Positions 6,679 through 52,020 of a stretch of 64,000 nucleotides of DNA are shown here, one piece after another. The position numbers and the translations under genes were made by a program. Where the stretch lies: the NCBI GenBank assembly GCA_036499545.1, contig DASYDR010000095.1:396-64395 (forward strand). Reading direction: 5' to 3'. This stretch comes from Roseomonas sp. (GTDB lineage Bacteria > Pseudomonadota > Alphaproteobacteria > Acetobacterales > Acetobacteraceae). The stretch's first letter is position 1, and every line of letters begins with the position of its first letter. A model generated the notes under the pieces. The model ran no database searches. It was not told the origin of the DNA and worked only from the letters and a program-made list of their open reading frames with translations.

Positions 6679-6684
6679 GCGTCG

Positions 6685-8313: not shown

Positions 8314-9095
8314 CCATGACCGCACCGCTCTATGCGCTGGAGGATGCCGGCTTCACGGTATCCGGCCGCACCATCCTGCATCCGCTGCGCTGCGACCTGC
8401 CGGCCGGGCGGGTGATCGGCCTGATCGGGCATAATGGCTCCGGCAAGTCGACATTGGTGAAGCTGCTGGCCCGGCAACAGGCGGCGAGCGCCGGGGCCAT
8501 CCACTTCGAAGGCATGGCGCTCAGGGCCTGGCCGGGGCGCGGCTTCGCCCGCCGCGTCGCCTATCTGCCGCAGCAGACCGCGCCCGCCACCGGCCTGCTG
8601 GTGCGGGAACTGGTGGCGCTCGGACGCTACCCCTGGCATGGCACGCTCGGCCGCTTCGGGGCCGCCGACCGCGCCAAGGTGGCCGAGGCCCTGCGGCTGA
8701 CCGGGACCGAGGTCTTCGCCGACCGGCTGGTCGACACGCTCTCCGGCGGCGAACGCCAACGCGCCTGGCTTGCCATGCTGGTCGCCCAGGATGCCGCCTG
8801 CCTGCTGCTCGACGAACCGATCGCCGCACTCGACGTCGCGCATCAGGTGGAGATGCTGGCCCTGGTCCAGCGGCTCAGCCGGGAGCGCGGGGTGAGTGTC
8901 ATCGTCGTGCTGCACGACGTGAACATGGCGGCGCGCTTCTGCGACGAGATCCTGGCCCTGCATGGCGGCCGGCTGATCGCGCGCGGCACGCCGGAGGCGA
9001 TCATGACCCCTTCGGTGCTGGCGTCGATCTATGGCGTGCCGATGGCGACGCTGCCGCATCCCGACGGCGTCGGCGTCATCGGATTCGTGCGGTAG
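8310..9095 (+). CDS. fhuC: Fe-siderophore ABC transporter ATP-binding protein
   Basis: GHNGSGKST, LSGGERQRAWLAMLVAQD, LLLDEP..ALDVAHQVE, VLHDVNMAARFCD. GTGA overlap with the exporter stop codon. Confidence 0.92.
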   Translation: MTMTAPLYALEDAGFTVSGRTILHPLRCDLPAGRVIGLIGHNGSGKSTLVKLLARQQAASAGAIHFEGMALRAWPGRGFARRVAYLPQQTAPATGLLVRELVALGRYPWHGTLGRFGAADRAKVAEALRLTGTEVFADRLVDTLSGGERQRAWLAMLVAQDAACLLLDEPIAALDVAHQVEMLALVQRLSRERGVSVIVVLHDVNMAARFCDEILALHGGRLIARGTPEAIMTPSVLASIYGVPMATLPHPDGVGVIGFVR

Positions 9096-9128: not shown

Positions 9129-10703
9129 TCAGCCCTTCTCGACGTTCCAGAAGATCGGGAAGGAGGATTGCACCAGGTCGCGCAGCGACGAGCGATAGGC
9201 GGCCGGGATGGTGAACTGGCCCCACATGACATTGGGCACCAGCTCATAGGCGATACGCTGCACCTCGGCCGCGATCCGCTTGCGCTCCTCCTGGGTCTCG
9301 GCATCGGCGAAGGCGCGCGCCAGGGCCGGGATGCGATCGTCGCAGGACCAGCCCGGGTAATCCGCGCAGGTGCTGGCGATGTAGAAATGGGTCAGCGGTG
9401 TCAGCATGTCGACGCCGTTGGAATAGACCGAGAAGATGCTCCAGCCCTCGCGCCGCCCGCGCCGCGCCAGGACCGTGCCCCAATCCATCACCTGTTCGTC
9501 CACCGTGAAGCCGGCCTGTTGCATGTTCTGCACCAGCACCTGCGCCGCGGTCTGGGAGATGGAACCGGAGACTTCCAGGAAGACCACCGGCTGGCCGCGA
9601 TAGCTGGTGCGCGCCAGCTCCGCCTTCGCCTGTTCCACCGCCAGCCGGGCGCCCTCGGCGCCGGCATCGGTGCTGTAGGGCGCGCCGCACATCCAGAAGG
9701 ACTGGCATTGCGGGGCACGGAAACGTTCGGGGATGCCGATCGCCTGCAGCACGGTGCTCTGGTCGACCAGCTTCCACAGCACGCGCCGCACCGCCGGATC
9801 GTCGAAGGGCGGGAAGGTGTGGTTCAGGCGGAAATTGCCCTGGAACTGCTGCAGGCCGCCGAGCGAGAGCAGCCGCACGTCGCGCGCGCGTTCCAACCGC
9901 GGGATCCAGTCGAAGGGGACATACTGCTGGTAGTCGATCTCGCCGGCCATCAGCGCGGTCGAGCCGGTCGCCTGGTCCGACATGGCGCGCAGCGACAGGC
10001 TGTCGATCCGCACCCGCTTGCCGCCGGCCAGGAAATCCGGCGCTTCGGGGCGCGGCGCATAGCCCGCGAATTTCTCCAGCACCATGGCATTGCCTGGCCG
10101 CCAGAGATCCGGGCGGAAGCGGAAAGGGCCGGAGCCGATGATTTCCGTGATGCGCTGGTCGGCAGGTGTGCGGGCGATGCGTTCCGGCAGGATGAAGGGC
10201 ACCGGGGCGTTCGGCTTGCCCAGCACGTCCAGCACCAGCGGGAAGGGGCGCTTCAACCGCAGCTCGATCGTCCGCGCATCCCTGGCCACCAGGCTCTCCC
10301 GCGCATCCAGCAGCATGCGGCCCAGGGCATCGCGCGGCATCCAGCGTTCGAGGGAGGCGACGACATCGGCCGCCGTCACCGGCTGGTCGTCGTGGAATTT
10401 CAGCCCCGGGCGCAAGGTAACGCGCCAGGTCAGGCGATCGGCGGAGACGCTGTGGTCCTCGGCCATCTGCGGCTGGATGCGGCCTTGCCCATCCATGGCG
10501 AAGAGCGTGTCGAAGACATGATAGCCGAAGGTGCGGGTGATCGCCGCGGTCGTCACATAGGGATCGAGGATGACGACCTCGGATTCCAGCATCAGGGTCA
10601 GCTGCCGCTCGGCCCGCGCTTCCGGCGGCCGGATGATGCCGGAAGCCGCCAATGCGCCGCCGCCGGCCAGCAGGCCACGACGCCCGAATTCCGTGATGGG
10701 CAT
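9129..10703 (-). CDS. ABC transporter substrate-binding protein, family 5 (peptide/nickel)
   Basis: Start set at ATG 10703 (MPITEFGRRGLLAGG, Tat-like). LDPYVT..VFDTLF..PQMAE..TLRPGLKFHDDQPVTAADVVAS..IGSGPFRF. Confidence 0.88.
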   Translation of the reverse strand: MPITEFGRRGLLAGGGALAASGIIRPPEARAERQLTLMLESEVVILDPYVTTAAITRTFGYHVFDTLFAMDGQGRIQPQMAEDHSVSADRLTWRVTLRPGLKFHDDQPVTAADVVASLERWMPRDALGRMLLDARESLVARDARTIELRLKRPFPLVLDVLGKPNAPVPFILPERIARTPADQRITEIIGSGPFRFRPDLWRPGNAMVLEKFAGYAPRPEAPDFLAGGKRVRIDSLSLRAMSDQATGSTALMAGEIDYQQYVPFDWIPRLERARDVRLLSLGGLQQFQGNFRLNHTFPPFDDPAVRRVLWKLVDQSTVLQAIGIPERFRAPQCQSFWMCGAPYSTDAGAEGARLAVEQAKAELARTSYRGQPVVFLEVSGSISQTAAQVLVQNMQQAGFTVDEQVMDWGTVLARRGRREGWSIFSVYSNGVDMLTPLTHFYIASTCADYPGWSCDDRIPALARAFADAETQEERKRIAAEVQRIAYELVPNVMWGQFTIPAAYRSSLRDLVQSSFPIFWNVEKG

Positions 10704-10747
10704 GGGAAGTTCCCTCCGTTTTCGTGGTCGGTCGGGCTTCGCAGTTC

Positions 10748-10755
10748 GATATATC
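10748..10755. promoter_or_regulatory. Candidate GntR operator 1 (GATATATC core)
   Basis: ttcGATATATCct in the ~100-bp divergent gap between the SBP and the amidase. The same core occurs at 14192 and 18608. Confidence 0.65.
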
Positions 10756-10806
10756 CTATGGCAGGCTGCGCTACCGATCGCCCCCGCGCAAGGAGGAAAC
10801 GCGCCG

Positions 10807-12240
10807 ATGTCCGATGCCGAGCTTCTCTTCATGCCGGCGACACGCGCGGCCGCACTGATCCGCCGGCGCGCGCTCTCCCCGGTCGAGCTGACGCGCGCCG
10901 TGCTGGATGCGATCGCGCGCGAGCAGCCGCGCCTGAACGCCTTCGTGACCGTGCTGGAAGACCAGGCGATGGAAGCGGCGCGGGAGGCGGAGCAGGCGGT
11001 GATGCTCGGCGCGCCGCTCGGCCCTCTGCACGGCGTGCCGGTGCATATCAAGGACCAGGTCGATACCGCCGGCATCCGCACCACCCATGGCTCGGCGATC
11101 TTCGCGGAGAACGTGCCGGCACGGGACGACATCACCGCGACCCGGCTGCATCAGGCGGGCAGCATCCTGCTCGGCAAGACGACGATGCCGGAGTTCGGGC
11201 ACAAGGGGCTGACCGATGGGCCGGGCTTCGGCACCACCCGCAACCCCTGGGACCTGACGCGCACCGCCGGCGGCTCCTCGGGCGGTGCCGCGGCGGCGGT
11301 GGCGGCGGGGCTCGGGCCGCTCGGGCTCGGCACCGACGGCGCCGGTTCGGTGCGCATCCCGGCCGCCTGCTGCGGCATCGTCGGGCTGAAGGCGACGCTC
11401 GGCGCCGTGCCCTGGGAAGCGGCGGCCGACACCTTCGCCAACAATGTCTATGCGGGGCCGATGACGCGCACGGTGACCGATGCCGCGGTGATGTTCGCGG
11501 CGATCACGGGACCGAGCCCGCGCGACGCGCAGAGCCTGCGCGGCCCGGGCCTGGCGCCGGTGTCACCAGGGCTGATCGGCGGCGATCTGCACGGGCTTCG
11601 CATCGGCTACATCGCGCGGGCCTGCAATGCGCGGGTGCAGCGGGAGATGGCGGCGAACACCATCGCCTCCCTCGACGCGCTGATGGCGCGCGGCGCCGCG
11701 GTGGAGGAAGTGAAGGACGCGATCGACTGGATGGAATTCCCCGGCCGCATCATGTACCAGGCCGGTTTCGCGGTGACCTGCGCGCAGTATCTGCCGGAAT
11801 GGCACAACCGCATGGATCCGGTGCTGCTCGCCTTCATGGAGCGCGGGTCGGCCTTCTCCCTCGCGGAGTTCCGCGAAGCGCAATTCGCCCGCACCCGGCT
11901 GTTCCGCACCATCCAGGGCCTGTTCGAACGCTACGACGTGCTGGTGACGCCGACCCTGACGCGCACCGCGCTGCCGGCCGATTTCGACGCCGCGCATGAC
12001 GAGGTCGAGATCGAGGGCGAGCGCTTCGGCATCACCCGCCAGGGCTGGAGCAGCTACATGTACCCCTTCAACCTGACGGGGCATCCGGCGCTGACCATTC
12101 CGTCCGGCTTCGCCGAGGATGGCCTGCCGACCGCGGTGCAACTCGTCGGCCCCTGGGGCGCCGACATGGACCTGCTGCGCCTCGGCGCCCTGCTGGAGCA
12201 GGACCGCCCCTGGGCGCAGCGGCGGCCGAAGCTGGCGTAG
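10807..12240 (+). CDS. Amidase-signature family hydrolase
   Basis: GVPVHIKD (catalytic Lys), GGSSGGAAAAV and GTDGAGSVRIPA (Ser-cisSer-Lys triad region). AAGGAGG RBS upstream of ATG 10807. Confidence 0.92.
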   Translation: MSDAELLFMPATRAAALIRRRALSPVELTRAVLDAIAREQPRLNAFVTVLEDQAMEAAREAEQAVMLGAPLGPLHGVPVHIKDQVDTAGIRTTHGSAIFAENVPARDDITATRLHQAGSILLGKTTMPEFGHKGLTDGPGFGTTRNPWDLTRTAGGSSGGAAAAVAAGLGPLGLGTDGAGSVRIPAACCGIVGLKATLGAVPWEAAADTFANNVYAGPMTRTVTDAAVMFAAITGPSPRDAQSLRGPGLAPVSPGLIGGDLHGLRIGYIARACNARVQREMAANTIASLDALMARGAAVEEVKDAIDWMEFPGRIMYQAGFAVTCAQYLPEWHNRMDPVLLAFMERGSAFSLAEFREAQFARTRLFRTIQGLFERYDVLVTPTLTRTALPADFDAAHDEVEIEGERFGITRQGWSSYMYPFNLTGHPALTIPSGFAEDGLPTAVQLVGPWGADMDLLRLGALLEQDRPWAQRRPKLA

Positions 12241-14166: not shown

Positions 14167-14191
14167 GGGGCTAGGCTCCTTCACGCCCTTC

Positions 14192-14199
14192 GATATATC
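14192..14199. promoter_or_regulatory. Candidate GntR operator 2 (GATATATC core)
   Basis: ttcGATATATCat in the ~90-bp divergent gap between the aminotransferase and the SBP. Confidence 0.65.
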
Positions 14200-14255
14200 A
14201 TGTGGCCGAATGATTTGGGAATGCGGCGGCACGACCGCATCCTGGGGGAGGCGAG

Positions 14256-15758
14256 ATGCGCGCTTTGCTGGCCGGACTGTTCGGCCTGATCCTGATGGCC
14301 ATGCCTGGCGCGGCGCAGACCCTGCGCATCGGCATCGCCTCCGATCCCGATGTGCTGGACCCGACCCTGTCGCGCAGCGTCGCGGCGCGGCAGGTTTTCA
14401 TGGCCATGTGCGACAAGCTGATCGAGGTGAACGAGCGGGGCGAACTGGTGCCGCAACTCGCGACCGGCTGGAACTGGGAGGAGGAGGGCCGCGCGCTGCT
14501 GCTGACGCTGCGGCCGGGCGTGCATTTCCAGGATGGCGCGGCGCTGGATGCGGAAGCCGCGGTCGCGGGCCTGAACCGGCACTTCACCGCCCCGGGCTCC
14601 ACGCGTCGCGGCGAAATGGGACCGGTGACGGGCATTGAGGTCGCGGGGCCCATGCAGGTCCGGATCCGCCTGAGCCAGCCCTTCGCGCCGCTGCTGGCGG
14701 CGCTGTCCGATCGCGCGGGCATGCTGGTATCACCGCGCCAGGCCACTGTGTTCGGTGCCGATTTCCAGCGCGAGCCCGCCTGCGCCGGCCCCTTCCGCCT
14801 GACCCGCCGCGTCGCCCAGGACCGCATCGAGCTGGAGCGGTTCGACGGCTACTGGGACCGCGCCGCGATCCATGCCGAGCGCGTCGTCTACCGGCCGATC
14901 AGCGACACCACGGTGCGCGCCGCCAATCTGCGTGCCGGATCGCTCGACATCATCGAACGGGTCAATACGTCGGATGTCGAGACGCTGCGCCAGGATCGCC
15001 GCGTCCGCCTGCTGGAAGGGCCGTCACTGTCGACCGTCTATATTGCGATCAATGTCGCGAACGGGGAGCGGGCGCAGACCCCGCTCGGCCGCGATCCCCG
15101 CGTGCGCGCGGCGCTGGAGGCGGCGATCGACCGGGAGGTGCTGAACCGCGTCGCCTTCGACGGGCTCTACCGACCGGCCAACCAGTCGGTGCCGCCCGGC
15201 CATCCGCACCATGTCGATGGCATCGCGGTGCCGGGCCGCGACGTCGCGCGCGCCCGCGCCCTGCTGCGGGAAGCGGGGCTGGAGCGGGTGCGGATCAAGT
15301 TCTCCGTGCCGAACACCACCGAATACGTGCAGGCCGCCGAAGTGATCCAGGCCATGGCGGCGGAAGCCGGCATCGACCTCGAGCTGCAGGTGATCGAGGT
15401 CGCGACCTTGCTGCGGCAATGGACCGCCGGCGATTTCGAGGCGCTGATCATCGCCTGGTCAGGGCGCACCGATATCGACGGCAATCTCTGGGGCTTCAAC
15501 GCCTGCGGTGAATCCCTCAACGGCGGCCGCTATTGCAGCGAAGCCGCGGATGCCGCGCTGCGCGACGGCCGCACCAGCGTCGACCCCGCGGCGCGGCTCG
15601 CCGCCTATGGCCGCGCCATGCGGGTGCTGCTGGAGGACCGGCCCTATATCTATCTCTGGCACCCGCGGAGCTTCTTCGGCACCACCGCCGCCGTGGACGG
15701 GCTGCGGCTGGTGCCGGATGGGCTGATCCGGGTGCAGGGCGTCAGCCTGCGCCGCTGA
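14256..15758 (+). CDS. ABC transporter substrate-binding protein, family 5 (DppA-like)
   Basis: Signal peptide, DPDVLDP, PQLATGW, LRPGVHFQDG, CAGPFRL, RDPRVRAALEAAIDR. Confidence 0.9.
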   Translation: MRALLAGLFGLILMAMPGAAQTLRIGIASDPDVLDPTLSRSVAARQVFMAMCDKLIEVNERGELVPQLATGWNWEEEGRALLLTLRPGVHFQDGAALDAEAAVAGLNRHFTAPGSTRRGEMGPVTGIEVAGPMQVRIRLSQPFAPLLAALSDRAGMLVSPRQATVFGADFQREPACAGPFRLTRRVAQDRIELERFDGYWDRAAIHAERVVYRPISDTTVRAANLRAGSLDIIERVNTSDVETLRQDRRVRLLEGPSLSTVYIAINVANGERAQTPLGRDPRVRAALEAAIDREVLNRVAFDGLYRPANQSVPPGHPHHVDGIAVPGRDVARARALLREAGLERVRIKFSVPNTTEYVQAAEVIQAMAAEAGIDLELQVIEVATLLRQWTAGDFEALIIAWSGRTDIDGNLWGFNACGESLNGGRYCSEAADAALRDGRTSVDPAARLAAYGRAMRVLLEDRPYIYLWHPRSFFGTTAAVDGLRLVPDGLIRVQGVSLRR

Positions 15759-15827: not shown

Positions 15828-16799
15828 TCACTGGTTCCAGGGCCGGCGCTGCCACAGCGCCTGCACCTGCTGGGCGTTGCTGGCGGCCATGGCGCGATAG
15901 GCATCGCCGACCACGGCGCGCAGCGGCAGGCCGACACGCTCCGCCTCGCGCAGGAAATCCGCATCCGCCATCGCCGCCGTGAAGGCCTGCTGCAGCGCAT
16001 CGCGGATCGGCGCTGGCATATTGGGTGGGCCGACGATGCCGCGCGCCGAGCCGCCGACGAGATCAAAGCCCTGCTCGCGGAAGGTCGGCACGTCCGGCGT
16101 CGCCTGCCAGCGCTGCTCCGCCGCCTGGCCGAGCGAGCGCAGCTGGCCTTCGCGCAGGTTGGAATAGATCTCGGCCATATTGGCGACGCCGAGCGGCAGG
16201 TGCCCGCCCAGGAGCTGCGTCATCAGCGGCGCGGCGCCAGCAAAGGGGATATGCGTCATTTCCGGAATGCCGGCCAGCGCCTGGAAGTTCAGCATCAGGA
16301 TGTGGTCGTCGGAGCCGATGCCGGTGGTGCCATAGCTGAGCTCGCCCGGCTTTGCCTTTGCGGCGGCGACGAGGTCGGCCAGCGTCCTGATCGGCGAATT
16401 GGTCGCGACATAGATCGTGTTCGGGTCATCGACCACATTGGCGATGAAGCTGAAATCCAGCGGCCGGTAGCGCACCGGCCGCTCCAGCGGGAAGGTGTTC
16501 AGCGCCGGCAGCGTGATGGCGCAGAGCGTATAGCCGTCGGCCGGCGCGTTGAAGCCGAACTCGAAGCCGACCTGGCCGCCGGCACCGCCGCGATTGCTCA
16601 CCACCGCGCGCGCGTTGCGGCCGAGATGCCTGGTGACATAGGGCATCACCAGCCGTGCCATGGTGTCGACGCCGCCGCCCGGCGGATAGGGCACGATGAC
16701 TTCGATGGCACGGTCCCCGGGCCAGCCCGATTGCGCGCGGGCAAGGGACGGCGCGGCGAGCAACGCGGCGCCCGTCAGGAGATGACGGCGGGAGAGCAT
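15828..16799 (-). CDS. Tripartite tricarboxylate transporter substrate-binding protein (Bug/TctC)
   Basis: MLSRRHLLTG leader, IVPYPPGGGVD, NRGGAGG, ADGYTL, YGTTGIGSDDH, HIPFAGAAP. Confidence 0.9.
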   Translation of the reverse strand: MLSRRHLLTGAALLAAPSLARAQSGWPGDRAIEVIVPYPPGGGVDTMARLVMPYVTRHLGRNARAVVSNRGGAGGQVGFEFGFNAPADGYTLCAITLPALNTFPLERPVRYRPLDFSFIANVVDDPNTIYVATNSPIRTLADLVAAAKAKPGELSYGTTGIGSDDHILMLNFQALAGIPEMTHIPFAGAAPLMTQLLGGHLPLGVANMAEIYSNLREGQLRSLGQAAEQRWQATPDVPTFREQGFDLVGGSARGIVGPPNMPAPIRDALQQAFTAAMADADFLREAERVGLPLRAVVGDAYRAMAASNAQQVQALWQRRPWNQ

Positions 16800-16889
16800 G
16801 GATCTGTTTCCTCGACTTCTGCAGCGGGCGGGAGATTGCGTCGGCATCCCGCCGGGGTCAAAGAGAGCCCGGAAGAGGGAGGATGCGGC

Positions 16890-17813
16890 ATGACAGGGCA
16901 ACACGCGGTGGTTGTGGGCTTCGGCCTGATGGGGTGCGACATCGCGGCGATCTTCCTCGCCGGCGGCTGGCGCGTCAGCGCGGTGGAAACCGATCGCACC
17001 GCCTGGCCGTCCCGGGAGGAGCGCGTGCGCAGCTCCCTGGCGCAGCTCGACGCCGATCCCGCGCTCGGCGCCGCGCTCACCTTGCATGGCGCGCTGGAGG
17101 ATGTCGGCTTCGCCGATGCGGCGGTGGTGATCGAAGCGGTGCCGGAGCAGCTGGAGCTGAAGCGCCAGGTCTTCGCCGCGCTCGACCGGCTGGTGCCGGC
17201 GGGCGTGCCGATCGCGACCAATGCCTCAGGCCTGCGCATCACCGATATCGCGCGGGAGCTGCCGGGCCGCGCGCGCATGGCCAACCTGCATTTCTTCCTG
17301 CCGGCGCATCTGGTGCCGGGGGTCGAGGTGGTGCGCGGCGAATACACCGACCCCGCGGTCTGCGACCGGCTGGCGGCGATCATGGCCTCGCTCGGCCGCA
17401 AGCCGATCCGCGTCGGGCGCGACGTGCCGGGCTTCCTGGCCAACCGCATCCAGCATGCGCTGATGCGCGAAGCCTTCGCCGCGATCGATGAAGGCCTGGC
17501 CACGGCGGAGGATGTGGACGCCGCGGTGCGCTATGCCTTCGGCTTCCGCTACGTCGCCGCCGGCCCGATGCTGCAGAAGGAGCTGGCGGGGCTCGAGACC
17601 CAGCTTGCCGCCGCCCGCAGCATCTACCCGTCGCTGCACAACGGCACCGAACCCTCCGCCACGCTGCAGAAGCTGGTGGCCGAAGGCCGGCTTGGCGCCA
17701 AGAGCGGCCGCGGTTTCCGTGACTGGCCGGAGGACAAGGTGGCGCGGGAGAAGGCGCGCTACGAAAGCACGCTCAAGGCCGCGACCAGGCTGCTCCGCGA
17801 CGAGGAGAGCTGA
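16890..17813 (+). CDS. 3-hydroxyacyl-CoA dehydrogenase family protein
   Basis: VVVGFGLMG Rossmann motif, IEAVPEQLELKRQVF, ATNASGL, HFFLP, PGFLANRIQHAL. GGAGG RBS before ATG 16890. Confidence 0.9.
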   Translation: MTGQHAVVVGFGLMGCDIAAIFLAGGWRVSAVETDRTAWPSREERVRSSLAQLDADPALGAALTLHGALEDVGFADAAVVIEAVPEQLELKRQVFAALDRLVPAGVPIATNASGLRITDIARELPGRARMANLHFFLPAHLVPGVEVVRGEYTDPAVCDRLAAIMASLGRKPIRVGRDVPGFLANRIQHALMREAFAAIDEGLATAEDVDAAVRYAFGFRYVAAGPMLQKELAGLETQLAAARSIYPSLHNGTEPSATLQKLVAEGRLGAKSGRGFRDWPEDKVAREKARYESTLKAATRLLRDEES

Positions 17814-18599
17814 TCAGCCCTTGCGGGCAGGCGTCTCCGCGGCGCTTTCCTCCATCCGGCGCAGCAGCGCGACCAGACCGGCGCCGCCTTCGATGGTGTC
17901 GGCGATCACCGCGTCGCGCGTCGCGCCCGCATCCCGCGCCCGCAGCCCGTCCAGGATGTCGAGATGGCGGTGCCGGCCGGGATAGGTCGGCCGCGCATGC
18001 GGGTACAGGTGGTTCAGCATCGGCCCGTTGCGCAGCCAGATGCCCTCGATCACGCCCAGCAGTTCCGGCATCGCGGCGGCACGGTAGAGCCCGTGGTGAA
18101 AGCGCCAATTGGCCCCGATCGCGGCCGGCGCATCGCCCGCCGCCTCGGCCCGCACCAGCTCCGCATGCGCGCGTTCCAGCGCGCGGATGCCGGCTTCGGT
18201 AACGTGCGCGGCCGCCGCGGCGGCGGCCATGCTCTCGAGCGCCAGGCGCACCTCGCGCAGTTCCAGGTATTGCGCCAGGGTCAGCCCGGCGACGGTGATG
18301 GCGCGCGCCTGTTCCATGCGCAGCGCGCGTTCGCGAACCAGCTGCATCACGGCTTCCCGCACCGGCGTCTCGGAAACCGACAGGCTTTGCGCCAGGTCGC
18401 GGATCTTCAGGCGCTGGCCCGGCCGCATGCGGCCTTCCATCAGCGCGTTGCGCAGCTCGGCATAGACGCGGCCGGTGAAGTTCTCGCGCCCGATCGGCGT
18501 CAGGAAGCCAAGCCCGTCGCCGGCCGCGGCCCGCGATGGGCGGACGGGGCTGCGGGCGGTGGGGCGGGACCGGGCGGGCGGCTGATCCATGGACACCAT
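17814..18599 (-). CDS. GntR-family (FCD) transcriptional regulator
   Basis: VYAELRNALMEGRMRPGQRL..LAQSLSVSETPVREA HTH plus FCD domain (ELREVRLALE, NWRFHHGL). Start at 18599 or 18590. Confidence 0.9.
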   Translation of the reverse strand: MVSMDQPPARSRPTARSPVRPSRAAAGDGLGFLTPIGRENFTGRVYAELRNALMEGRMRPGQRLKIRDLAQSLSVSETPVREAVMQLVRERALRMEQARAITVAGLTLAQYLELREVRLALESMAAAAAAAHVTEAGIRALERAHAELVRAEAAGDAPAAIGANWRFHHGLYRAAAMPELLGVIEGIWLRNGPMLNHLYPHARPTYPGRHRHLDILDGLRARDAGATRDAVIADTIEGGAGLVALLRRMEESAAETPARKG

Positions 18600-18607
18600 G
18601 ACTATTT

Positions 18608-18615
18608 GATATATC
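18608..18615. promoter_or_regulatory. Candidate GntR operator 3 (GATATATC core)
   Basis: ttGATATATCga immediately upstream of gntR, in the gntR/acylase divergent gap. Confidence 0.7.
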
Positions 18616-18673
18616 GACGAACCGGCGAAGCCGGACCAGAGTTGACGCGCCGCTTCATATGGGAAGGCCCCGC

Positions 18674-20980
18674 ATGCCGCCAGCATTCAACGCCCGGACC
18701 CTGCAGGCCGCCCTGCCGCCGCTCACCGGGGAGCTCCGGCTGCCGGGCCTGGCGGCGCCGGTCACGGTGCTGCGCGACGCCTGGGGCATTCCGCATATCC
18801 GGGCGCGGGGCGAGGCCGACGCCTTCCGCGCCCAGGGCTTCGTGCATGCCCAGGACCGGCTGTTTCAGATGGAGCTGAACCGCCGCCGCGCGCTCGGCCG
18901 CGCCGCCGAATGGCTCGGCGCCGCGGCGGCCGAAGGCGATATCCTGGCCCGGCGCCTGGGCGTGGAGGTCGCCAGCCGGCGCGATTGCGCCGCCCTCGGC
19001 GAGGAGGCGCGGGCGATGGTGGAGGCCTATGCGGCCGGCGTGAACGCCTTCATCGCCTCCGGCGCGCCGCACCCCGCCGAATACGCCCTGCTCGGCACGA
19101 CGCCGGAACCCTGGGAAGGCTGGCACTGCGTCGCGGTGATGCGCCGCCTCGGCCTGTTGATGGGCTCGGTCTGGTTCAAGCTGTGGCGTGCCGCGGCGTT
19201 GCCGCTGGTCGGCGCGGAGAACGCGGCCAAGCTGCGCTACGATGATGGCGGGCGCGACTTGTTGCTGGTGCCGCCGGGCGTCGAGGCCACGCGCTGGACG
19301 GCGATGCTGGCCGATCTGGCACCCGGGATGGAAGCACTGCTCGGCACGGCGGCAGGGGATGCGACGGGCGGCGGCAGCAACAACTGGGCGGTGGCGCCGG
19401 CGCTGAGCGGCACCGGCCGGCCATTGCTCGCGGGCGATCCGCACCGCGTCTTCGAGATCCCGAACATGTATGCGCAGGGCCATCTCGCCTGCGATGCCTT
19501 CGATGCGATCGGGCTGACGGTACCGGGCGTGCCGGGCTTTCCGCATTTCGCCCATAACGGCCGCGTCGCCTGGTGCGTCACCCATGCCTTCGTCGATATC
19601 CATGACCTGTTCGTCGAACGCCTGGATGCCACCGGCGCGCGCTGCGCCTTCCGCGGCGATTGGCGCCCGGTGCGGCGGCGGGAGGAAGCGGTGCTGGTGC
19701 GCGGCGAAGCGGCGCCGCGCACGGTCACGGTGCTGGAGACCGATCACGGTCCGATCATCGCCCAATCCGGCGACATCGCGCTGGCGTTGCGCTCGGTGCA
19801 ATTCGCCGAGACCGATCTCTCCTTCGATTGCCTGCCGCGCATGCTGCGCGCGGAGAGCGTCCCGGCCCTGTTCGAAGCGACGCGCGGTTGGGGCCTGATC
19901 GACCATAACCTGGTCGCCGGCGATACCGGCGGCCGCATCGGGCATCTGGTGCGCGCCCGCATCCCGCGCCGCCCGCGCGCCAATGGCTGGCTGCCGGTGC
20001 CGGGCTGGACCGGCGCGCATGACTGGCAGGGCTGGATCGAACACGAGGCCATGCCGCAGGTCATCGATCCGCCCGGCGGCCTGATCGTCACCGCGAACAA
20101 CCGCGTCGCCGCCGATGACGGGCCGGACTACCTCTGCACCGATTGCCATCCTTCCTACCGCGCGCGCCGCATCCTGGACCGGTTGCGGACCGAGGCCGCG
20201 GCACGGACCGTGGAGGGGGCAGCATCCCTGCATGCCGATACGCTCTCCGCCAATGCCCTGCTGTTCCGCGAACGCATCGCCGCGCTGGCGGAGCCCGGCG
20301 ATGCCGCGGCCGCGGCGTTGCGGGCCCGGCTGCTCGCCTGGGATGGGCGCATGCAGGCCGGAGACAGTGCCCCCACCGCCTATATCGCGCTGCGGCGCGC
20401 GTTGACCGCGCTGTTGGCCGAGCGCAGCGGCCTGGCGGGCCTGGCGTCGCATCCCTTCCTGACCGTGGCGCCCGGCGTGGTGCCGCAGGGCCAGCTCTGG
20501 TGGGCGCTGCCGAACCTGCTGCGCGCGGACGACGCCAGCCTGCTCGGCGGCCTCGGCTGGGCGGACGCCTTCGGGGAAGCGCTGGCGCGGGCGGCACGGC
20601 AGGACACGGACCAGCCGTGGGGCGAAGCGCACCGGCCGCGCCTGGCGCATCCGCTCTCGCCGGGCTTTCCGGATGCGGCGGCGCTGCTCGATCCGGCCGG
20701 ACTGCCGATCGGCGGCGACACCGACACGGTGCTGGCCAATGGGCTGCTGCCGGCCTCCGGCCCCGCCGCCACCTATGGCGCGCTGGCGCGCTATGTCTTC
20801 GATGTCGGCAATTGGGAGAATTGCCGCTGGGCCGTGTTCCACGGTGCCTCCGGCCATCCCGGTAGCCCGCATTTCGCCGACCAGCATGCGGAATGGGCGG
20901 CGACCAGGATGGTACCGATGACCTATGGCTGGGAGGCGATCGCCGGCGCGGCGCGGACGGCGCAGCAACTGTTGCCCTGA
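18674..20980 (+). CDS. Penicillin acylase family Ntn-hydrolase, cephalosporin acylase AcyII-like
   Basis: RDAWGIPHI, QGFVHAQDRLFQM, autocleavage site GGG|SNNWAV (Ser codon 19376), GDPHR, TANNR. No signal peptide. Confidence 0.93.
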   Translation: MPPAFNARTLQAALPPLTGELRLPGLAAPVTVLRDAWGIPHIRARGEADAFRAQGFVHAQDRLFQMELNRRRALGRAAEWLGAAAAEGDILARRLGVEVASRRDCAALGEEARAMVEAYAAGVNAFIASGAPHPAEYALLGTTPEPWEGWHCVAVMRRLGLLMGSVWFKLWRAAALPLVGAENAAKLRYDDGGRDLLLVPPGVEATRWTAMLADLAPGMEALLGTAAGDATGGGSNNWAVAPALSGTGRPLLAGDPHRVFEIPNMYAQGHLACDAFDAIGLTVPGVPGFPHFAHNGRVAWCVTHAFVDIHDLFVERLDATGARCAFRGDWRPVRRREEAVLVRGEAAPRTVTVLETDHGPIIAQSGDIALALRSVQFAETDLSFDCLPRMLRAESVPALFEATRGWGLIDHNLVAGDTGGRIGHLVRARIPRRPRANGWLPVPGWTGAHDWQGWIEHEAMPQVIDPPGGLIVTANNRVAADDGPDYLCTDCHPSYRARRILDRLRTEAAARTVEGAASLHADTLSANALLFRERIAALAEPGDAAAAALRARLLAWDGRMQAGDSAPTAYIALRRALTALLAERSGLAGLASHPFLTVAPGVVPQGQLWWALPNLLRADDASLLGGLGWADAFGEALARAARQDTDQPWGEAHRPRLAHPLSPGFPDAAALLDPAGLPIGGDTDTVLANGLLPASGPAATYGALARYVFDVGNWENCRWAVFHGASGHPGSPHFADQHAEWAATRMVPMTYGWEAIAGAARTAQQLLP

Positions 20981-20981
20981 G

Positions 20982-21323
20982 CTATCGCCGCTGCAGGCGG
21001 CAATGGGCTGGCGCCACGCCGGGTGCTGCGACGGATGCCTCGTCCCTGGATGCGGTGATCGCCAGCAGGCCGGCATCCAGGCGGGCGGTGTAGCGCATGC
21101 CGGGCCCGACCCCTTCCGGCACGCCGGCCAGGGTGACCGGCACGCCTTGCCAATCCAGCATCGCGGTCGGCGCATCGCCGGCCACGAAGACAATCGGCAG
21201 CGGCTCCCGCATCCCGCCGCAGGTCAGGATGGCCGAGACACGGGGCGGCTCCGTCTGCGCCCGGGCGGCGCTCGCCGGCGCCAGGGCCAGGCAGGCGAGG
21301 ATCGGGGTGGCGGCGTGGCGCAT
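20982..21323 (-). CDS. Small secreted hypothetical protein (possible MliC/PliC-like fold)
   Basis: Signal peptide ending A-R-A, two Cys flanking a ~80-aa mature domain. Start at ATG 21323 (alternative 21353). Confidence 0.6.
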   Translation of the reverse strand: MRHAATPILACLALAPASAARAQTEPPRVSAILTCGGMREPLPIVFVAGDAPTAMLDWQGVPVTLAGVPEGVGPGMRYTARLDAGLLAITASRDEASVAAPGVAPAHCRLQRR

Positions 21324-21337
21324 CGCGATCCGCACCG

Positions 21338-21916
21338 TCAGCGCCCCTGCCAATCCGCCGGCATCGGGCTGTGCCGGCCTTCGGCGAACTCCTCGATCAT
21401 CTTGGCGCAGAAAGCCGGCAGGTCGCCGGGGCTGCGGCTGGTGACCAGGCCATTATCCACCACCACCTCCCGGTCCAGCACCTCCGCGCCGGCATTGCGC
21501 AGGTCGGTGTGGATGCTGTGGTAGCCGGTCATGCGGCGGCCTTCGGCGACGCCGGCATCGATCAGGATCCAGGGCGCATGGCAGATGGCCGCGACCGGCT
21601 TGCCGGCTTCGAAGAAGCCGCGCACGAAGCGCAGCGCTTCCCGGTCGGTGCGGAGCGCATCCGGGTTATGCGCGCCGCCGGGCAGCACCAGCCCGTCGTA
21701 ATGCGTCGCATCCGCGGTCTTCACCGAGCGGTCCACTGGCACGGTCTCGCCTTTCTCGAAATGCCGGAAGCCGGTGATCTCGCCGGGCTTCGGCGACACG
21801 ATCTCCACCCGCGCGCCAGCCCGTTTCAGCGCCTGCAGCGGCTGGGTCAGCTCCACCTGCTCGAAACCGTCCGTCGCCAGGATCGCGATGGTCTTGCCCT
21901 GCAGCGTTTCAGCCAT
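21338..21916 (-). CDS. pfpI: PfpI/DJ-1 family protein (type 1 glutamine amidotransferase-like)
   Basis: AILATDGFEQVEL, YDGLVLPGG..NPD.LR, AAICHAPW, VVVDNGLVTSRSPGDLPAF. Confidence 0.93.
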   Translation of the reverse strand: MAETLQGKTIAILATDGFEQVELTQPLQALKRAGARVEIVSPKPGEITGFRHFEKGETVPVDRSVKTADATHYDGLVLPGGAHNPDALRTDREALRFVRGFFEAGKPVAAICHAPWILIDAGVAEGRRMTGYHSIHTDLRNAGAEVLDREVVVDNGLVTSRSPGDLPAFCAKMIEEFAEGRHSPMPADWQGR

Positions 21917-22057
21917 GCCTCTGTTCCCTTCCGTCCGTCCGGAGCGTGATCGGTTGCGGTGAGATCACCGGAAACCGTGGATCACGCGGTCGACCACAGT
22001 CCTGGCGCATGATCCGTGCGCGCAGGCGAACGCATCGTGCTCCAGCCAGGCGGGGGG

Positions 22058-22082
22058 AACGCCGCGGGGCGGCCAGGGTTCA
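22058..22082 (-). promoter_or_regulatory. Candidate EcfG/sigmaT general-stress promoter for pfpI
   Basis: Minus strand TGAAC-N16-CGTT against the consensus GGAAC-N16/17-CGTT, about 140 bp upstream of pfpI. Confidence 0.45.
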
Positions 22083-22257
22083 CGCACCGCCGCGTGAGGG
22101 GGTCTCACGTCGGTGGCGTGGTCCGCACTCGGCGTCGCGACCTGCCGTCCGATCGCAATTTGACATCGAGACGACCGAAGCCTTCGGTCATGATGTCCGC
22201 CGGATCTGCGCACTGCCGGGCTTCGGCTGGTCGGGATCGTGTTCGGGGAACAGGCGA

Positions 22258-23634
22258 ATGGAATTCGGCGTCTTCGATATCTTCCGCATCGGTATCGGCC
22301 CATCGAGTTCCCACACCGTCGGGCCGATGCGGGCGGCGGCGCGCTTCGCGGAGGCGCTTGGCGAGAAGGGCCTGCTGGCCCGGGTCGCGCGGGTGCGGGC
22401 GGAGGTCTTCGGCTCCCTGGCGCTGACCGGGCGCGGGCACGCGACGGACATCGCGATCCTGCTCGGCCTCTCCGGCGAATGGCCGGAGCATGTCGATCCC
22501 GACATGGCGGGCGACACTGTCGCGGCGATCCAGGCGGCAGGCCGCATCCGGCTGGCCGGCCGGCATCCGGTTCCTTTCGTGGAGGCGGAGGATCTGTTGC
22601 TGCATCGCCGTGAAGTGCTGCCCTGCCATACCAACGGCATGCGTTTCACCGCCTTCGATGCCGAAGGCGCGGCGCTGGACAGCCTGGTCTGCTACTCGAT
22701 CGGCGGCGGCTTCGTGGCGACGGAGGAGGAGTTGCTGCGCCCGACGGCGCCCGCTGCCTCCGTGGTGGTGCCCCACGCCTTCGGCAGTGGCGCAGAGATG
22801 CTGGCGATGGCGGCGCGGAGCGGCCTTGGCATCGCCGCCATGATGCGCGCCAACGAACACGCACGGGGCCACGCGACGCAGGCGGTGGATGCCGGGCTGC
22901 GCCGCATCCGCGATGCCATGCGCGACTGCATCGAGCGCGGCATGCGCGGCGAAGGGCATTTGCCCGGCCGCACCCGGCTGCGCCGCCGCGCCGCCGCCCT
23001 GCATCGCGACCTGCTGGTCCGCCCGCGCGAAACGGATCCGATGATCGCATCCGATTGGGTCAGCCTCTTCGCCATCGCGGTGAATGAGGAGAATGCGGCC
23101 GGCGGCCGCGTCGTCACCGCGCCCACCAATGGCGCCGCCGGGATCGTGCCCGCGGTGATGCATTACTACGAACGCTTCGTGGCCGGCGCGACCGAGCAGG
23201 GCGTCTTCGACCTGCTGCTGACCGCGGCCGCGATCGGGGTGCTCTACAAGCGCAACGCCTCGATCTCCGGCGCCGAGGTCGGTTGCCAGGGGGAGGTTGG
23301 CGTCGCCTGCTCGATGGCGGCGGCCGGCCTCGCCGCCGCGATGGGCGGTACCGTCGCCCAGGTGGAGAATGCCGCCGAGATCGGCATGGAGCACAATCTC
23401 GGGCTGACCTGCGATCCGGTCGGCGGGCTGGTGCAGATCCCCTGTATCGAACGCAACGCACTCGGCGCCAACAAGGCGATCATCGCCGCGCGCCTGGCGC
23501 TGCGCGGCGACGGCGCGCACCACGTCTCGCTCGATGACGTCATCCGCACCATGCGGCAGACCGGCATCGACATGCAGTCCAAGTACAAGGAAACCTCGCT
23601 CGGCGGCCTGGCGGTGAACGTCACCGAGTGCTGA
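22258..23634 (+). CDS. sdaA: L-serine ammonia-lyase (Fe-S, single chain)
   Basis: [90 protein letters not shown]. Confidence 0.96.
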
Positions 23635-23645
23635 TATTCGCGGTC

Positions 23646-23758
23646 GAGCGTCGGATTCAGACCTTCGGGCCGTTCGGTCCTCCGGCCATCGGACGCTCGC
23701 AAGTCGGGCGTCCGATTCAGACCTTCGGGCCATTCGGCCCTCCGGCCATCGGACGCTC
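23646..23758. repeat. Two tandem copies of a 53-nt palindromic REP-like element (23646-23698, 23706-23758)
   Basis: gagcgtcggattcagaccttcgggccgttcggtcctccggccatcggacgctc and gggcgtccgattcagaccttcgggccattcggccctccggccatcggacgctc, with a 60-nt period. A third inverted copy is at 55577. Confidence 0.9.
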
Positions 23759-24884
23759 AGGCATGCCTCGGCAGCCGTGCCAGCAGGCTGGCCAGCGCCG
23801 ATTGCGAATGCACGCCGACCTTGCCGAAGATGGCCTGCAGATGCGTGCGCGCCGTCGAATGCGCGATGCCCTCGCGCTCCGACACGGTGCGCAGCGGCAG
23901 TCCCGCCGCGACATGCGCGGCGATGCGCGCTTCCGTTCCGGTCAGGCCGAACAGGCTGCGCAACAGCCCCGGGTCGATGCCGGGCGAGGGGTCGCGCAGG
24001 ATCAGCAGCGCGGCCGGGCGCGGCAGGCCGATCTCGGTCACCGGAATGGCCGGCGCCGCGCCGAGGATGGCGATGCAGGGCGGCGCGTGATCGGCCGCCT
24101 CGATGCTGAGCCGCCCCTTGCGCTGCGCGGCGGGGCCGAGTGCCGTGGCGCGGATGGCGGCGGCGAACTTCGCCTGCCCGGCCGTGCGCGCCGTTTGCAG
24201 CCGGCCGGCGCGCAGGCGCAGCCAGTCGCCGCGCCGGAGCAGTGCTTCCGCGTCACGATTGGCCAGGATCAGGCGGCCATCGGCATCAGCCAGCAGGGCC
24301 GCCGCATCCATGGTGTCCAGCAGCGTGCTCCAGTTCCGCCGGACGGTGCCGGCGAAATGCCGCGCGAGGTCGAGGGCGAGGATCAGCTGTGGCGCCGCCT
24401 GCCGGATGGCCGCGAGATTCGCCGCCGTCGTCGCGGCGCCCTTCGCGTCGAGACAGAAGCCATAGCCGCCGGTCAGCACATCCGCCCAATCGCCGTAGAG
24501 CAGGTTGGTCACCTCCTGGATGCCCTGCGGCGCGAGAATATCGGCATGGAAGGCGGTGCGGTGCAGCGTCGTCCGGCAGAGGCTCATCGCCGGCAGGATC
24601 TCGCCCGGGCGCCGGCGCATCAGCAGCGTCGACATCGGGTTGACCTGATAGCGCTCCATGTAGAGCCGGTCGCAATCGGGATCGAGCCGGCCGACATGCA
24701 GGACGCTGTCGCGGGGATCGGGCGCCATGGCATGCACCATGGCCCCCTTCGCGCCGACGGCGTCCGACACCCCGGTCAGCGCCAGGGGCCAGAGCGTGGG
24801 GTCGAGTGCCGCCGCATGCAACTTCTCGATCGTCGGCAAGCCGAGCACGGCAACCGCTGCCTTCCGCAGATGATGGAGGCACAA
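23757..24884 (-). CDS. LuxR-type HTH transcriptional regulator with N-terminal GAF/PAS-like sensor
   Basis: C-terminal FGLTGTEARIAAHVAAG..LRTVSEREGIAHSTARTHLQAIFGKVGVHSQSAL. The central LLADADGRLILANRDAEALL segment is PAS-like. Confidence 0.85.
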   Translation of the reverse strand: MCLHHLRKAAVAVLGLPTIEKLHAAALDPTLWPLALTGVSDAVGAKGAMVHAMAPDPRDSVLHVGRLDPDCDRLYMERYQVNPMSTLLMRRRPGEILPAMSLCRTTLHRTAFHADILAPQGIQEVTNLLYGDWADVLTGGYGFCLDAKGAATTAANLAAIRQAAPQLILALDLARHFAGTVRRNWSTLLDTMDAAALLADADGRLILANRDAEALLRRGDWLRLRAGRLQTARTAGQAKFAAAIRATALGPAAQRKGRLSIEAADHAPPCIAILGAAPAIPVTEIGLPRPAALLILRDPSPGIDPGLLRSLFGLTGTEARIAAHVAAGLPLRTVSEREGIAHSTARTHLQAIFGKVGVHSQSALASLLARLPRHA

Positions 24885-25106
24885 CCCTAGCCTGTCCCGG
24901 CCTCGTTACGACCGGCAGCGGGCACCTGGGACGCCAGGATGGATCAAAGGCCGTTTATCTCGCCTTTACCCATCGGGATTTCATACTGGTACGGCGGCCG
25001 GGGACCTGCGGAAGCTTGCATGAGATCTCTGTCATCTGCGGTCGATCGCCGGGGGACAGCCCAGCCGCCCGGTCTTATTGTCCGGCCAAACGGGAGGGTC
25101 CCATAC

Positions 25107-26108
25107 ATGGATACGGAACGGTTCGGCATCGGTCGGCGCGCCGCCCTGGGGTTCGGCGCCGCCGCGCTCGGCCTGGCGCGGGGCGCCTCGGCGCAGCAGC
25201 CCTGGTCGCCGCCGCGGACGGTGCGCATGATCGTCGCCTATCCGCCGGGCGGCGGCGCGGATACCACGGCGCGGCTGCTGGCCGTGCCGCTCAGCAGCTT
25301 CCTCGGGCAGTCGATCGTGGTGGAGAACCGGCCGGGGGCCGGCAGCACCATCGGCGCCGGCGAAGTGGCGCGCGCGGCGCCCGATGGCTGCACCCTGTTC
25401 CTGGATTCCGCCGGCCACACCATGGCGCCGGCCCTGATCCGCAACCTGCCCTTCGACTACGCCACGGCCTTCACCCCGATCAGCAAGGTCATCCTGCTGC
25501 CGCAGGTGGTCGTGGTGCCGGCGGCATCGCCCGATACCGGCCTGGCGGCGCTGGTGGCCCGGGCGAAAGCCAATCCCGGCCGGCTGACCATCGCCTCCTC
25601 CGGCAATGGCGGGGAGCAGCACATCACCGGCGTGCTGCTGATGCGCGGCGCCGGCATCGACATGACGCATGTGCCCTATCGCGGGGGCGCGCCGGCGATG
25701 CAGTCGCTGCTGTCCGGCGATGTCGACTGCGCCGTCGCCACCATCACCTCCGCCCTCGCGCTGGTGCGGGACGGCAAGCTGCGGGCGCTGGCCGCGACCG
25801 GTGCCGACCGGATCAGCAGCCTGCCCGACGTGCCGACCGTCGCCGAGCTGAACCTGCCCGGCCTCATCGGTTTCGACCGCAGCGAATGGAACGGCGTGCT
25901 GGCCCCGGCCGGGCTGCCGCCGGCGGCGGTGGAGCGCATCCATGCGGGCCTCCTGCAGGGCCTGGCCGCGCCCAATGTGAAGCAGCGGCTGGAGGCGATC
26001 GGCGCCGTGGTGCTGGGCACCTCGGCCGCCGACTTCGCCGCATTCCTGGCCCGCGAGCGCACGGCCATGGCAACCCTGGTGCGGGAAGCCAATATCGTCG
26101 CGGATTGA
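25107..26108 (+). CDS. Bug/TctC substrate-binding protein
   Basis: GRRAALG Tat-like leader, IVAYPPGGGADT, VENRPGAGSTIG, APDGCTL, HVPYRGGAPA. Confidence 0.92.
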   Translation: MDTERFGIGRRAALGFGAAALGLARGASAQQPWSPPRTVRMIVAYPPGGGADTTARLLAVPLSSFLGQSIVVENRPGAGSTIGAGEVARAAPDGCTLFLDSAGHTMAPALIRNLPFDYATAFTPISKVILLPQVVVVPAASPDTGLAALVARAKANPGRLTIASSGNGGEQHITGVLLMRGAGIDMTHVPYRGGAPAMQSLLSGDVDCAVATITSALALVRDGKLRALAATGADRISSLPDVPTVAELNLPGLIGFDRSEWNGVLAPAGLPPAAVERIHAGLLQGLAAPNVKQRLEAIGAVVLGTSAADFAAFLARERTAMATLVREANIVAD

Positions 26109-35100: not shown

Positions 35101-35159
35101 CGACGAGGGGCTCCTGGAGCGGGGATGCCTCCACCTATCGCGTGCCGATCCGTGCTCGG

Positions 35160-35188
35160 ATGACGGTTGCAAGACAGTCTCGTGAAGA
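35160..35188 (-). promoter_or_regulatory. Pho box upstream of pit
   Basis: Minus strand TCTTCAC-gaga-CTGTCTT-gcaa-CCGTCAT, 11-bp periodic, 60 bp upstream of the start. Confidence 0.6.
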
Positions 35189-37300: not shown

Positions 37301-37305
37301 CCGCC

Positions 37306-48022: not shown

Positions 48023-48069
48023 CGCCTCGCCGCCTCCACCGGGCACCGGGCGAAGCCGCGCCGGAGGAT

Positions 48070-48860
<791 letters not shown>

Positions 48861-48864
<4 letters not shown>

Positions 48865-51834: not shown

Positions 51835-52020
51835 GGGCGGGCTCCTCCGGGCGGTTCGGGCGGACATGCACCGGCGACCCGGGATCCGGCCTGGCGGCCG
51901 CCGATGGAGGCAAGGCGGAGGCCCGGCGCCGCCGCGCGGGCCGCCGCACACTATCCGTTGCGTGAACGACTATCGCATGCGGAGCGTTGCCGCCCCGTGG
52001 CGATCCGTCCGCGCGCTACG

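Follow-up and report, generated by a model that had tools for sequence, protein, structure and literature searches.

A class III cephalosporin acylase orthologue of Roseomonas sp. in a conserved gene set that appears to share an operator-like box

A 64,000-nucleotide stretch of DNA from Roseomonas sp. (contig DASYDR010000095.1, positions 396 to 64,395; hereafter, the window) encodes the 768-amino-acid (aa) precursor of a cephalosporin acylase, which is divergent from the gene of a GntR/FCD regulator. By every sequence criterion that we tested, this enzyme falls within the N176/SE83-type class III acylases. On the basis of the sequence comparisons presented here, we consider it fairly probable that the acylase is a cytoplasmic, self-processing enzyme that cuts a C4-C6 dicarboxylic amide, and that it is part of a catabolic regulon governed by the neighbouring GntR/FCD regulator via an operator-like box with the consensus TATTTGATATATCAAATA, an 18-bp palindrome. 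For decades, glutaryl-7-aminocephalosporanic acid (glutaryl-7-ACA)/cephalosporin C acylases have been the object of engineering aimed at the production of 7-ACA. An earlier reading of this DNA, made from the sequence only, regarded the physiological substrate of these enzymes as not established, and a review likewise finds it unclear which role cephalosporin acylases play physiologically (PMC5474475). Glutaryl-7-ACA has been called the "natural substrate" only as the best known one (PMC6712217). No published account of a class III acylase neighbourhood or regulon was found in open-access papers and preprints, and a cyanochelin preprint deals with class I-like and PvdQ-like acylases; the conserved regulon and operator of class III acylases appear to be undescribed.

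The best matches of the acylase in the PDB were both chains of the N176 class III cephalosporin acylase of Pseudomonas sp. (4HSR/4HST), an engineered crystal variant (M31F) that was used as the reference for the residue comparison. Acylase residues 8-224 were aligned to residues 10-226 of the alpha chain, with 158 of 217 residues identical (73%), and residues 235-768 to residues 1-534 of the beta chain, with 343 of 536 identical (64%), so that the overall identity to N176 is about 66.5% (E-values in Table 1). The sequence-only reading had expected well over 50% identity to the industrial enzymes, which was borne out for N176, and the N176 motifs that it had listed (LQAALPPLSG, RDAWGIPHI and GFVHSQDRLFQMELTRRKALGRAAEWLG) are all found in PDB chain 4hsr_A. 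The second-best characterised relative was the D-succinylase 7EBY (E 2.8e-77), followed by 35sz, a "penicillin acylase family protein" in the PDB (E-71), whereas penicillin G acylases matched at E-33 or weaker and class I glutaryl acylases at about E-22 to E-17. The same reading had held that closer hits to QuiP, PvdQ or penicillin G acylase would speak against it; N176 scored 5e-230 as compared with E-33 for penicillin G acylases, and the NCBIfam PvdQ equivalog, which has a cut-off of 950 bits, gave only 32.5 bits.

At E < 1e-50, the acylase matched more than 4,600 proteins in the database. The top matches, 70-84% identical, came from Plastoroseomonas, Roseomonas, Falsiroseomonas, Humitalea and Siccirubricoccus and were labelled "penicillin acylase family protein." The acylase itself is ordinary, one of thousands of unstudied orthologues found mainly in Roseomonas-like Acetobacteraceae. 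N176 lies at a roughly equal distance from the proteobacterial orthologues (56-67% identity), and its nearest relatives are Bosea-like, with beta-chain identities of 93%, 82% and 80%.

The acylase open reading frame (ORF), which is present as the earlier reading had described it, ends at 20980 on the plus strand and may start at 18659 or 18674; ATG 18674 is likely to be the start, because the sequence GGGAAGG lies 7 nt upstream. The codon-position G+C of the ORF is of the coding type, with a third-position value (GC3) of 0.87 in a window of about 70% G+C. A single Pfam domain, Penicil_amidase (PF01804, S45 fold), covers residues 29-757, almost the full length. The beta chain opens at S235 with SNNWAVAP, straight after GGG (GGG/SNNW junction), and the motif RRLGLLMGSVWFKLW is found within the alpha chain; both features had been read correctly before. 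The N-terminus, MPPAFNARTLQAALPP, has no hydrophobic signal-peptide core, as judged from the sequence and from the alignment to 4hsr_A, in which residue 8 of the acylase pairs with residue 10 of the mature N176 alpha chain. Because the N-terminus lacks such a core and aligns to the start of the mature N176 alpha chain, the acylase is likely to be located in the cytoplasm, as had been proposed. Absence of a signal peptide is a trait of class III acylases. A scan of 18450-21450 for sigma-70 promoters and terminators gave nothing above chance, and when RNA evidence of co-transcription was sought in public runs, the sequence was found in one soil metagenome DNA run only.

All of the catalytic and oxyanion residues of the beta chain, namely S1, H23, H70 and N242 (roles as given in PMC6712217), are present in the acylase, and the acyl-pocket residues R24, Y32, H57, F58, I176, H178 and Y467 (beta) and M165 (alpha) are the same as in N176. 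Residue 31 is methionine, and F31 of the N176 crystal variant represents the known M31F mutation (PMC6712217). The beta-chain residues counted in the sequence-only reading (H23, R24, M31, H57, F58, H70, F72 and I75) were each found at the position given. Cephalosporin C is reported to be held in a productive pose by R24, Y32, H57, H70, H178, N242 and Y467 (PMC6712217). We aligned 35 orthologues from Acetobacteraceae, Bosea-like bacteria, Burkholderiales, Actinomycetota and N176, which are 54-93% identical overall. Invariant among them were S1, N2, N3, H23, R24, M31, Y32, H57, F58, H70, F72, I176, H178 and N242 of the beta chain and M165 of the alpha chain, and beta-chain I75 and Y467 had one or two conservative exceptions. 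Free variation was seen at the entrance or "gatekeeper" positions, namely S369, G372, L457 and S460 (beta) and E86 (alpha), where the window acylase has V, G, L, A and A, respectively.

Because the acyl pocket is that of the industrial enzyme, removal of a C4-C6 dicarboxylic (glutaryl-type) group is the most likely activity; the acyl class (succinyl, glutaryl or adipyl) is deduced here solely from the invariant pocket and is to be taken as a prediction. The acyl part of the natural substrate may thus be the same across the clade and glutaryl-like, whereas the side of the leaving group would differ by lineage. An invariant pocket combined with a variable entrance also shows engineers which parts of this scaffold nature keeps fixed.

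The gene context was compared by searching 80 loci around acylase relatives with the neighbour proteins of the window, L001-L031 being orthologue loci and 50 loci being those of distant paralogues (29-40% identity). Among these neighbours are two family-5 solute-binding proteins (SBP5a and SBP5b), an amidase-signature amidase, a class III aminotransferase, and the GntR/FCD regulator. Within 8 kb of the acylase gene, orthologues of the aminotransferase (52-85% identity) were present in 19 of the 31 orthologue loci, as well as in L086 at 70%, and those of SBP5a (58-81%) in 18 of the 31. The other partners were the regulator (10 loci), the amidase (8 loci, 68-88%) and SBP5b (4 loci: L003, L020, L023 and L025, 73-83%). 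Orthologues of the regulator (52-81%) lie beside the acylase in L001, L002, L003, L005, L006, L012, L018, L019, L020 and L023. Carriers include Neoroseomonas, Falsiroseomonas, Pseudoroseomonas, Roseococcus, Paracraurococcus, Roseicella, Siccirubricoccus, Rhodovarius and several metagenome-assembled genomes (MAGs), partner genes adjoin the acylase in more than 10 genera, and the synteny spans three bacterial orders. None of the partners was found in the 50 loci of distant paralogues.

The arrangement of the set varies among lineages. A minimal form, in which the aminotransferase and SBP5a genes run together away from the acylase gene across a divergent spacer of 140-390 bp, was seen in six loci, and the co-directional order acylase, GntR regulator, aminotransferase in two Burkholderiales MAGs. 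In three of the loci of minimal architecture (L007, L009 and L014), a 217-aa DUF1028 (PF06267) protein is encoded directly after the acylase. In the clade of N176 itself, represented by three Bosea-like lineages, the acylase gene is directly preceded on its own strand by that of an SBP5a orthologue (59-60%), with a gap of 31-46 bp. These lineages also have a regulator orthologue (54-56%) 5 kb downstream of the acylase (L081-L086), and in one of these loci the aminotransferase orthologue (70%) lies beside the regulator. The N176-type enzyme is, therefore, not isolated but part of a conserved, apparently co-regulated set that reaches the clade of the industrial enzyme. In the Actinomycetota locus L024 (8954-18814), the genes are co-directional in the order SDR, acylase, aldehyde dehydrogenase, family-5 binding protein, OppC, DppB and DppD; the binding protein is split there over two ORFs, possibly by a frameshift, and an aldehyde dehydrogenase gene is also near the acylase in L022. 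Across phyla, no companion of the acylase clade is more constant than a family-5 binding protein. The aminotransferase ranks second in conservation among the partners.

A short sequence shared by the promoters of the set was the other line of evidence. Three exact copies of the 10-mer TCGATATATC are present in the 64 kb, one in each divergent promoter region of the cluster, and when at most one mismatch was allowed, five matches were found as compared with 0.64 expected, a number reached in none of 100 shuffles. With a position weight matrix (PWM) made from non-redundant sites, only three sites in the window exceeded 14 bits, and box 3, in front of the acylase, had the top score. The 74-bp spacer between the regulator and acylase genes holds TTGATATATCGA, which is markedly A+T-rich for this genome. 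Boxes 1 and 3 are kept at the same position in L001, L003, L012, L020 and L023, and box 2 in L003, L020 and L023. The palindromic core, GATATATC, was detected at the corresponding promoters in every fetched locus with a GntR orthologue: the 17 regulator-containing sequences (the window and 16 loci) hold 37 core sites, all at the 5' ends of cluster genes, as against 0.63 expected from base composition. All 17 sequences with the regulator had the box, as compared with 2 of the 19 without it (Fisher P 2e-8).

We infer from this co-occurrence that the GntR/FCD regulator acts through the box. The sequence-only reading had called the neighbours of the acylase co-regulated and expected them to define its pathway. 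Co-regulation of SBP5a, SBP5b, the amidase, the aminotransferase and the acylase is supported, as far as sequence can tell, by both the box and synteny, and this part of the claim holds; the TctC-type binding protein gene at 15828, which has no box, drops out. The gene-neighbourhood comparison that had been suggested, in which SBP5a, the aminotransferase, the amidase and the regulator proved syntenic with the acylase in three orders including the N176 clade, favours the inference from context, because synteny and a shared operator-like box are two independent lines of evidence. In some relatives, the box also precedes genes that are absent from the window. In L005 (12438-21941), L006 and L081-L086 (about 17950-22300), a PotABC-like ABC transporter and its SBP_bac_8 protein are encoded behind the GATATATC box. 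After these come genes, likewise preceded by the box, for a two-subunit N,N-dimethylformamidase (DMFase)-like amidase (114 + 773 aa, PF20254; a DMF_alpha gene is seen in the Bosea-like loci) and for a fused E1 alpha-beta thiamine-diphosphate enzyme.

These findings can be arranged into a tentative pathway. SBP5a and SBP5b may capture a peptide-like amide with a C4-C6 dicarboxylic acyl group in the periplasm and pass it to a Dpp/Opp-type permease that would be encoded elsewhere. The acylase, which in contrast to the Tat-type signal-bearing SBP5a has no signal peptide, would then act in the cytoplasm, where it would release a dicarboxylate and an amine from the amide. The aminotransferase, which resembles FumI, may turn a primary amine, whether that of the product or that of the still uncleaved substrate, into a carbonyl, and the amidase-signature enzyme could cut a second amide bond or a related substrate, as could the DMFase-like enzyme in some lineages. 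The FCD-type regulator probably senses a carboxylate product or the substrate.

Several observations weigh against this proposal. The genes of the window stand on alternating strands, as three divergent pairs, and do not form a single operon, and Pfam, NCBIfam and PDB scans of the window genes detected no Dpp-type permease gene within the 64 kb. FumI acts on a long-chain amino-polyol, which does not obviously fit the product of a glutaryl amide, and the order of the pathway steps is a guess. In addition, the six loci of minimal architecture and the Actinomycetota loci have neither a GntR orthologue nor the box, so that this regulation is not universal. A bolder extension of the proposal is that class III acylases provide the deacylating step of a widespread, GntR-controlled soil pathway that consumes an imported dicarboxylyl amide, with transaminase and acylase forming the natural counterpart of the industrial two-step route, in which oxidative deamination of an aminoadipyl/gamma-glutamyl-type side chain is followed by removal of the keto- or glutaryl acyl group. 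We regard this extension as improbable at present; if it is true, a defined class of physiological substrates would lie behind the glutaryl-7-ACA activity that has for decades counted as "unnatural". The conserved regulon and operator make the question of the natural substrate experimentally approachable, with the binding protein for ligands and the regulator for effectors, and cultivable carriers for knockouts exist among Bosea and Roseomonas-group strains.

Other explanations of the cluster were considered. The acylase may be a D-succinylase-like deacylase of small N-succinyl or N-glutaryl amino acids or dipeptide mimics, which would agree with the rank of D-succinylase among the characterised relatives, with the dicarboxylic acyl groups that both characterised relatives take, and with the dipeptide-like nature of N-acyl amino acids, which would suit a family-5 binding protein. 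However, the similarity to D-succinylase is far below that to N176, and an alpha-amino acid released by such an enzyme needs no FumI/GSAM-like class III transaminase, so that we find this role rather unlikely.

Catabolism of beta-lactams appears slightly less plausible still. The peptide-type binding protein would serve the import of beta-lactams of the aminoadipyl type or of their peptide precursors (cephalosporin C, penicillin N or ACV-like peptides), the transaminase would generate the ketoadipyl form, and the acylase would remove the side chain, so that nature would have its own version of the industrial two-step route. N176 can hydrolyse cephalosporin C, at 4% of its rate on glutaryl-7-ACA (PMC6712217), and the constancy of the binding protein and, after it, the aminotransferase as partners could be accommodated. 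Nevertheless, genes for a beta-lactamase or any other beta-lactam function are lacking from the cluster, and FumI, to which the aminotransferase is closest among characterised enzymes, acts on an amine that bears no carboxylate. In addition, 7-ACA exceeds the substrate in toxicity (PMC5474475), and the cluster is very widespread in Acetobacteraceae and unlinked to producers.

We give a comparably low probability to recycling of siderophores or polyamine conjugates, in which the acylase would cut a succinyl- or citryl-type amide or hydroxamate to diamines and the transaminase would deaminate the amine. DesG, a PF01804 protein, has a genetically supported dicarboxylyl substrate, proposed to be N-hydroxy-N-succinylcadaverine (PMC12161575), the box is followed by a PotABCD-like transporter in L005, in L006 and in the Bosea-like loci, and SBP5a of the window is adjoined by a TonB receptor/FecCD set. 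The TonB/FecCD genes are not syntenic elsewhere, however, and the regulator is GntR-type and not iron-responsive. The window scans revealed neither a DesH-type acyltransferase nor an iron-regulator context: the rule for DesG-type enzymes, a PF01804 gene beside a PF13523 acyltransferase gene (desH) (PMC12161575), does not apply, as no PF13523 domain was found among the window genes scanned. Streptomyces DesG-type proteins were also absent from the top 120 relatives of the actinobacterial acylase orthologue.

It is very unlikely that the neighbourhood is a coincidence, with a stand-alone acylase in a region rich in orphan binding proteins; alternating strands, the lack of an operon or permease, unrelated downstream genes and an inserted TctC gene would agree with this view, which is contradicted by the synteny in three orders and the shared box. 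AHL acylases (AHL, acyl-homoserine lactone) are exported enzymes. A quorum-quenching AHL acylase is the least credible reading of all, despite being a more conceivable natural role for the beta-lactam acylase class according to a review (PMC5474475), given the PvdQ equivalog score far below cut-off, the lack of a signal peptide, a pocket lined by invariant Arg, His and Tyr, and the inactivity of the class I glutaryl acylase SY-77 on AHLs (PMC5474475).

The features of the cluster are listed in Table 1.

Table 1. Acylase, partner genes and operator-like boxes in the window
Feature	Position	Strand	Details
SBP5a, family-5 (peptide/opine/nickel type) periplasmic solute-binding protein	9129..10703	-	PF00496; Tat-type signal GRRGLLAGGGALAA
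Box 1, AGTTCGATATATCCTATG, in the 103-bp SBP5a/amidase divergent region	10743..10760		Exact TCGATATATC at 10746-10755; PWM 26.8 bits
Amidase-signature amidase, 477 aa, divergent from SBP5a	10807..12240	+	PF01425, 332 bits
Class III (GSAM-like) aminotransferase, 412 aa	12928..14166	-	PF00202
Box 2, CCTTCGATATATCATGTG, in the 89-bp aminotransferase/SBP5b divergent region	14187..14204		Exact TCGATATATC at 14190-14199; PWM 24.0 bits
SBP5b, second family-5 solute-binding protein, divergent from aminotransferase	14256..15758	+	PF00496, 246 bits
TctC/Bug binding protein	15828..17087	-	Between SBP5b and GntR gene
GntR/FCD regulator, divergent from acylase	17814..18599	-	PF00392 + PF07729; start uncertain, ATG 18599 or 18590
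Box 3, TATTTGATATATCGACGA, in the 74-bp GntR/acylase divergent region	18603..18620		Exact TCGATATATC on the minus strand, 18608-18617; PWM 28.2 bits
Class III cephalosporin (glutaryl-7-ACA) acylase orthologue, 768-aa precursor	18674..20980	+	PF01804, 586 bits; 4hsr_B, E 5.5e-230; 4hsr_A, E 1.2e-98
Acylase alpha chain	18674 to about 19345		Followed by a Gly-rich spacer
Acylase beta chain	19376 to 20977		From the Ser235 codon

The best PDB match of SBP5a was 8vdx (E 4e-91), with GsiB and AgaA being distant; no relevant paper on 8VDX was found in the literature, and hence it provides no clue to the ligand. The amidase reached 406 bits with NCBIfam PRK06169, under the cut-off of 506, and its best PDB matches were the aryl acylamidase 4yj6 and NylA. 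For the aminotransferase, the closest solved relative was FumI (6hbs; E 2.4e-125, 191 of 400 residues identical without gaps, 47.8%), an enzyme that moves an amine without an alpha-carboxylate onto pyruvate (PMC3136697). The TctC/Bug gene between SBP5b and the regulator, considered as a member of the set, was rejected; L003, L020 and L023, in other respects collinear, do not have this gene, which looks like an insertion into the cluster. Two further orphan TctC genes are located at 24939-26108 (+) and 35235-36221 (-).

Outside the cluster, a siderophore-type uptake set adjoins SBP5a upstream and consists of a TonB-dependent receptor (1659-3854), a fused double FecCD permease of 643 aa (4747-6678), a 542-aa ABC protein (6685-8313) and a 261-aa ABC ATPase (8310-9095). 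This region (1659-9095) was rejected as part of the pathway, since it was syntenic in no other locus and carries no box. Iron-acquisition genes are plentiful in the window, which also contains a haem-uptake set at 48070-51951 (-), encoding HemS/ChuX, Peripla_BP_2, FecCD and an ABC ATPase, and an ExbB/ExbD pair at 36629-37836 (+). Strong AT skew in the FecCD-encoding regions 4001-6000 (-0.30) and 48001-50000 (+0.29) is probably due to the codon composition of membrane proteins. Downstream, a 123-aa ORF (20982-21353, minus strand, GC3 0.88) is convergent with the acylase gene, their stop codons lying 1 bp apart; it had no Pfam or NCBIfam match and was not conserved in related loci. It is followed by genes for DJ-1/PfpI, L-serine dehydratase, another TctC and a luciferase-like oxidoreductase, which were likewise rejected as pathway members, having no synteny elsewhere and no box. 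A 375-aa ORF at 23757-24884 (-) had no Pfam match and a weak match to the NCBIfam BagY/FevT LuxR family (29.7 bits against a cut-off of 700), and a PHO4 phosphate-transporter gene at 33472-35172 (-) shows an extreme GC3 of 0.95.

Among known systems, the N176 acylase is closest to the window acylase, with the same fold, length, alpha-spacer-beta precursor and Ser1-beta after GGG, the same absence of a signal peptide, and identical catalytic and acyl-pocket residues, M31 being the residue of wild-type N176. The two differ in about one third of their residues, including the entrance changes S369 to V, S460 to A and alpha E86 to A, and N176 has its nearest relatives in the Bosea-like bacteria (80-93%), unlike the window acylase with its Acetobacteraceae lineage. 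SE83 AcyII and V22 are enzymes that we take to be of the same class III kind as N176. The D-succinylase of Cupriavidus sp. P4-10-C (7EBY/7EA4) is also a PF01804 Ntn-hydrolase taking a dicarboxylic (succinyl) group, but it matches at E-77 as compared with E-230 for N176, is longer (824 aa) and is expected to have a different pocket. The class I glutaryl acylases (P. diminuta KAC-1, GK16 and SY-77; 1FM2 and 1OR0) and the penicillin G acylases share the superfamily fold and the Ser1-beta mechanism and are only distant in sequence; these enzymes are exported, and their pockets are different. FumI of Sphingopyxis sp. MTA144 (6HBS), the aminopentol aminotransferase closest to that of the window, belongs to a fumonisin cluster with a carboxylesterase, a gene that has no counterpart in the window. 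For DesG (SCO4049) of Streptomyces coelicolor, like the acylase a PF01804 protein, hydrolysis of a diamine's succinyl amide or hydroxamate was proposed as the reaction in vivo (PMC12161575). DesG has the acyltransferase DesH as its partner and is iron-regulated, and neither feature is seen in the window. DesG indicates that dicarboxylyl-amine bonds are natural substrates within the PF01804 family.

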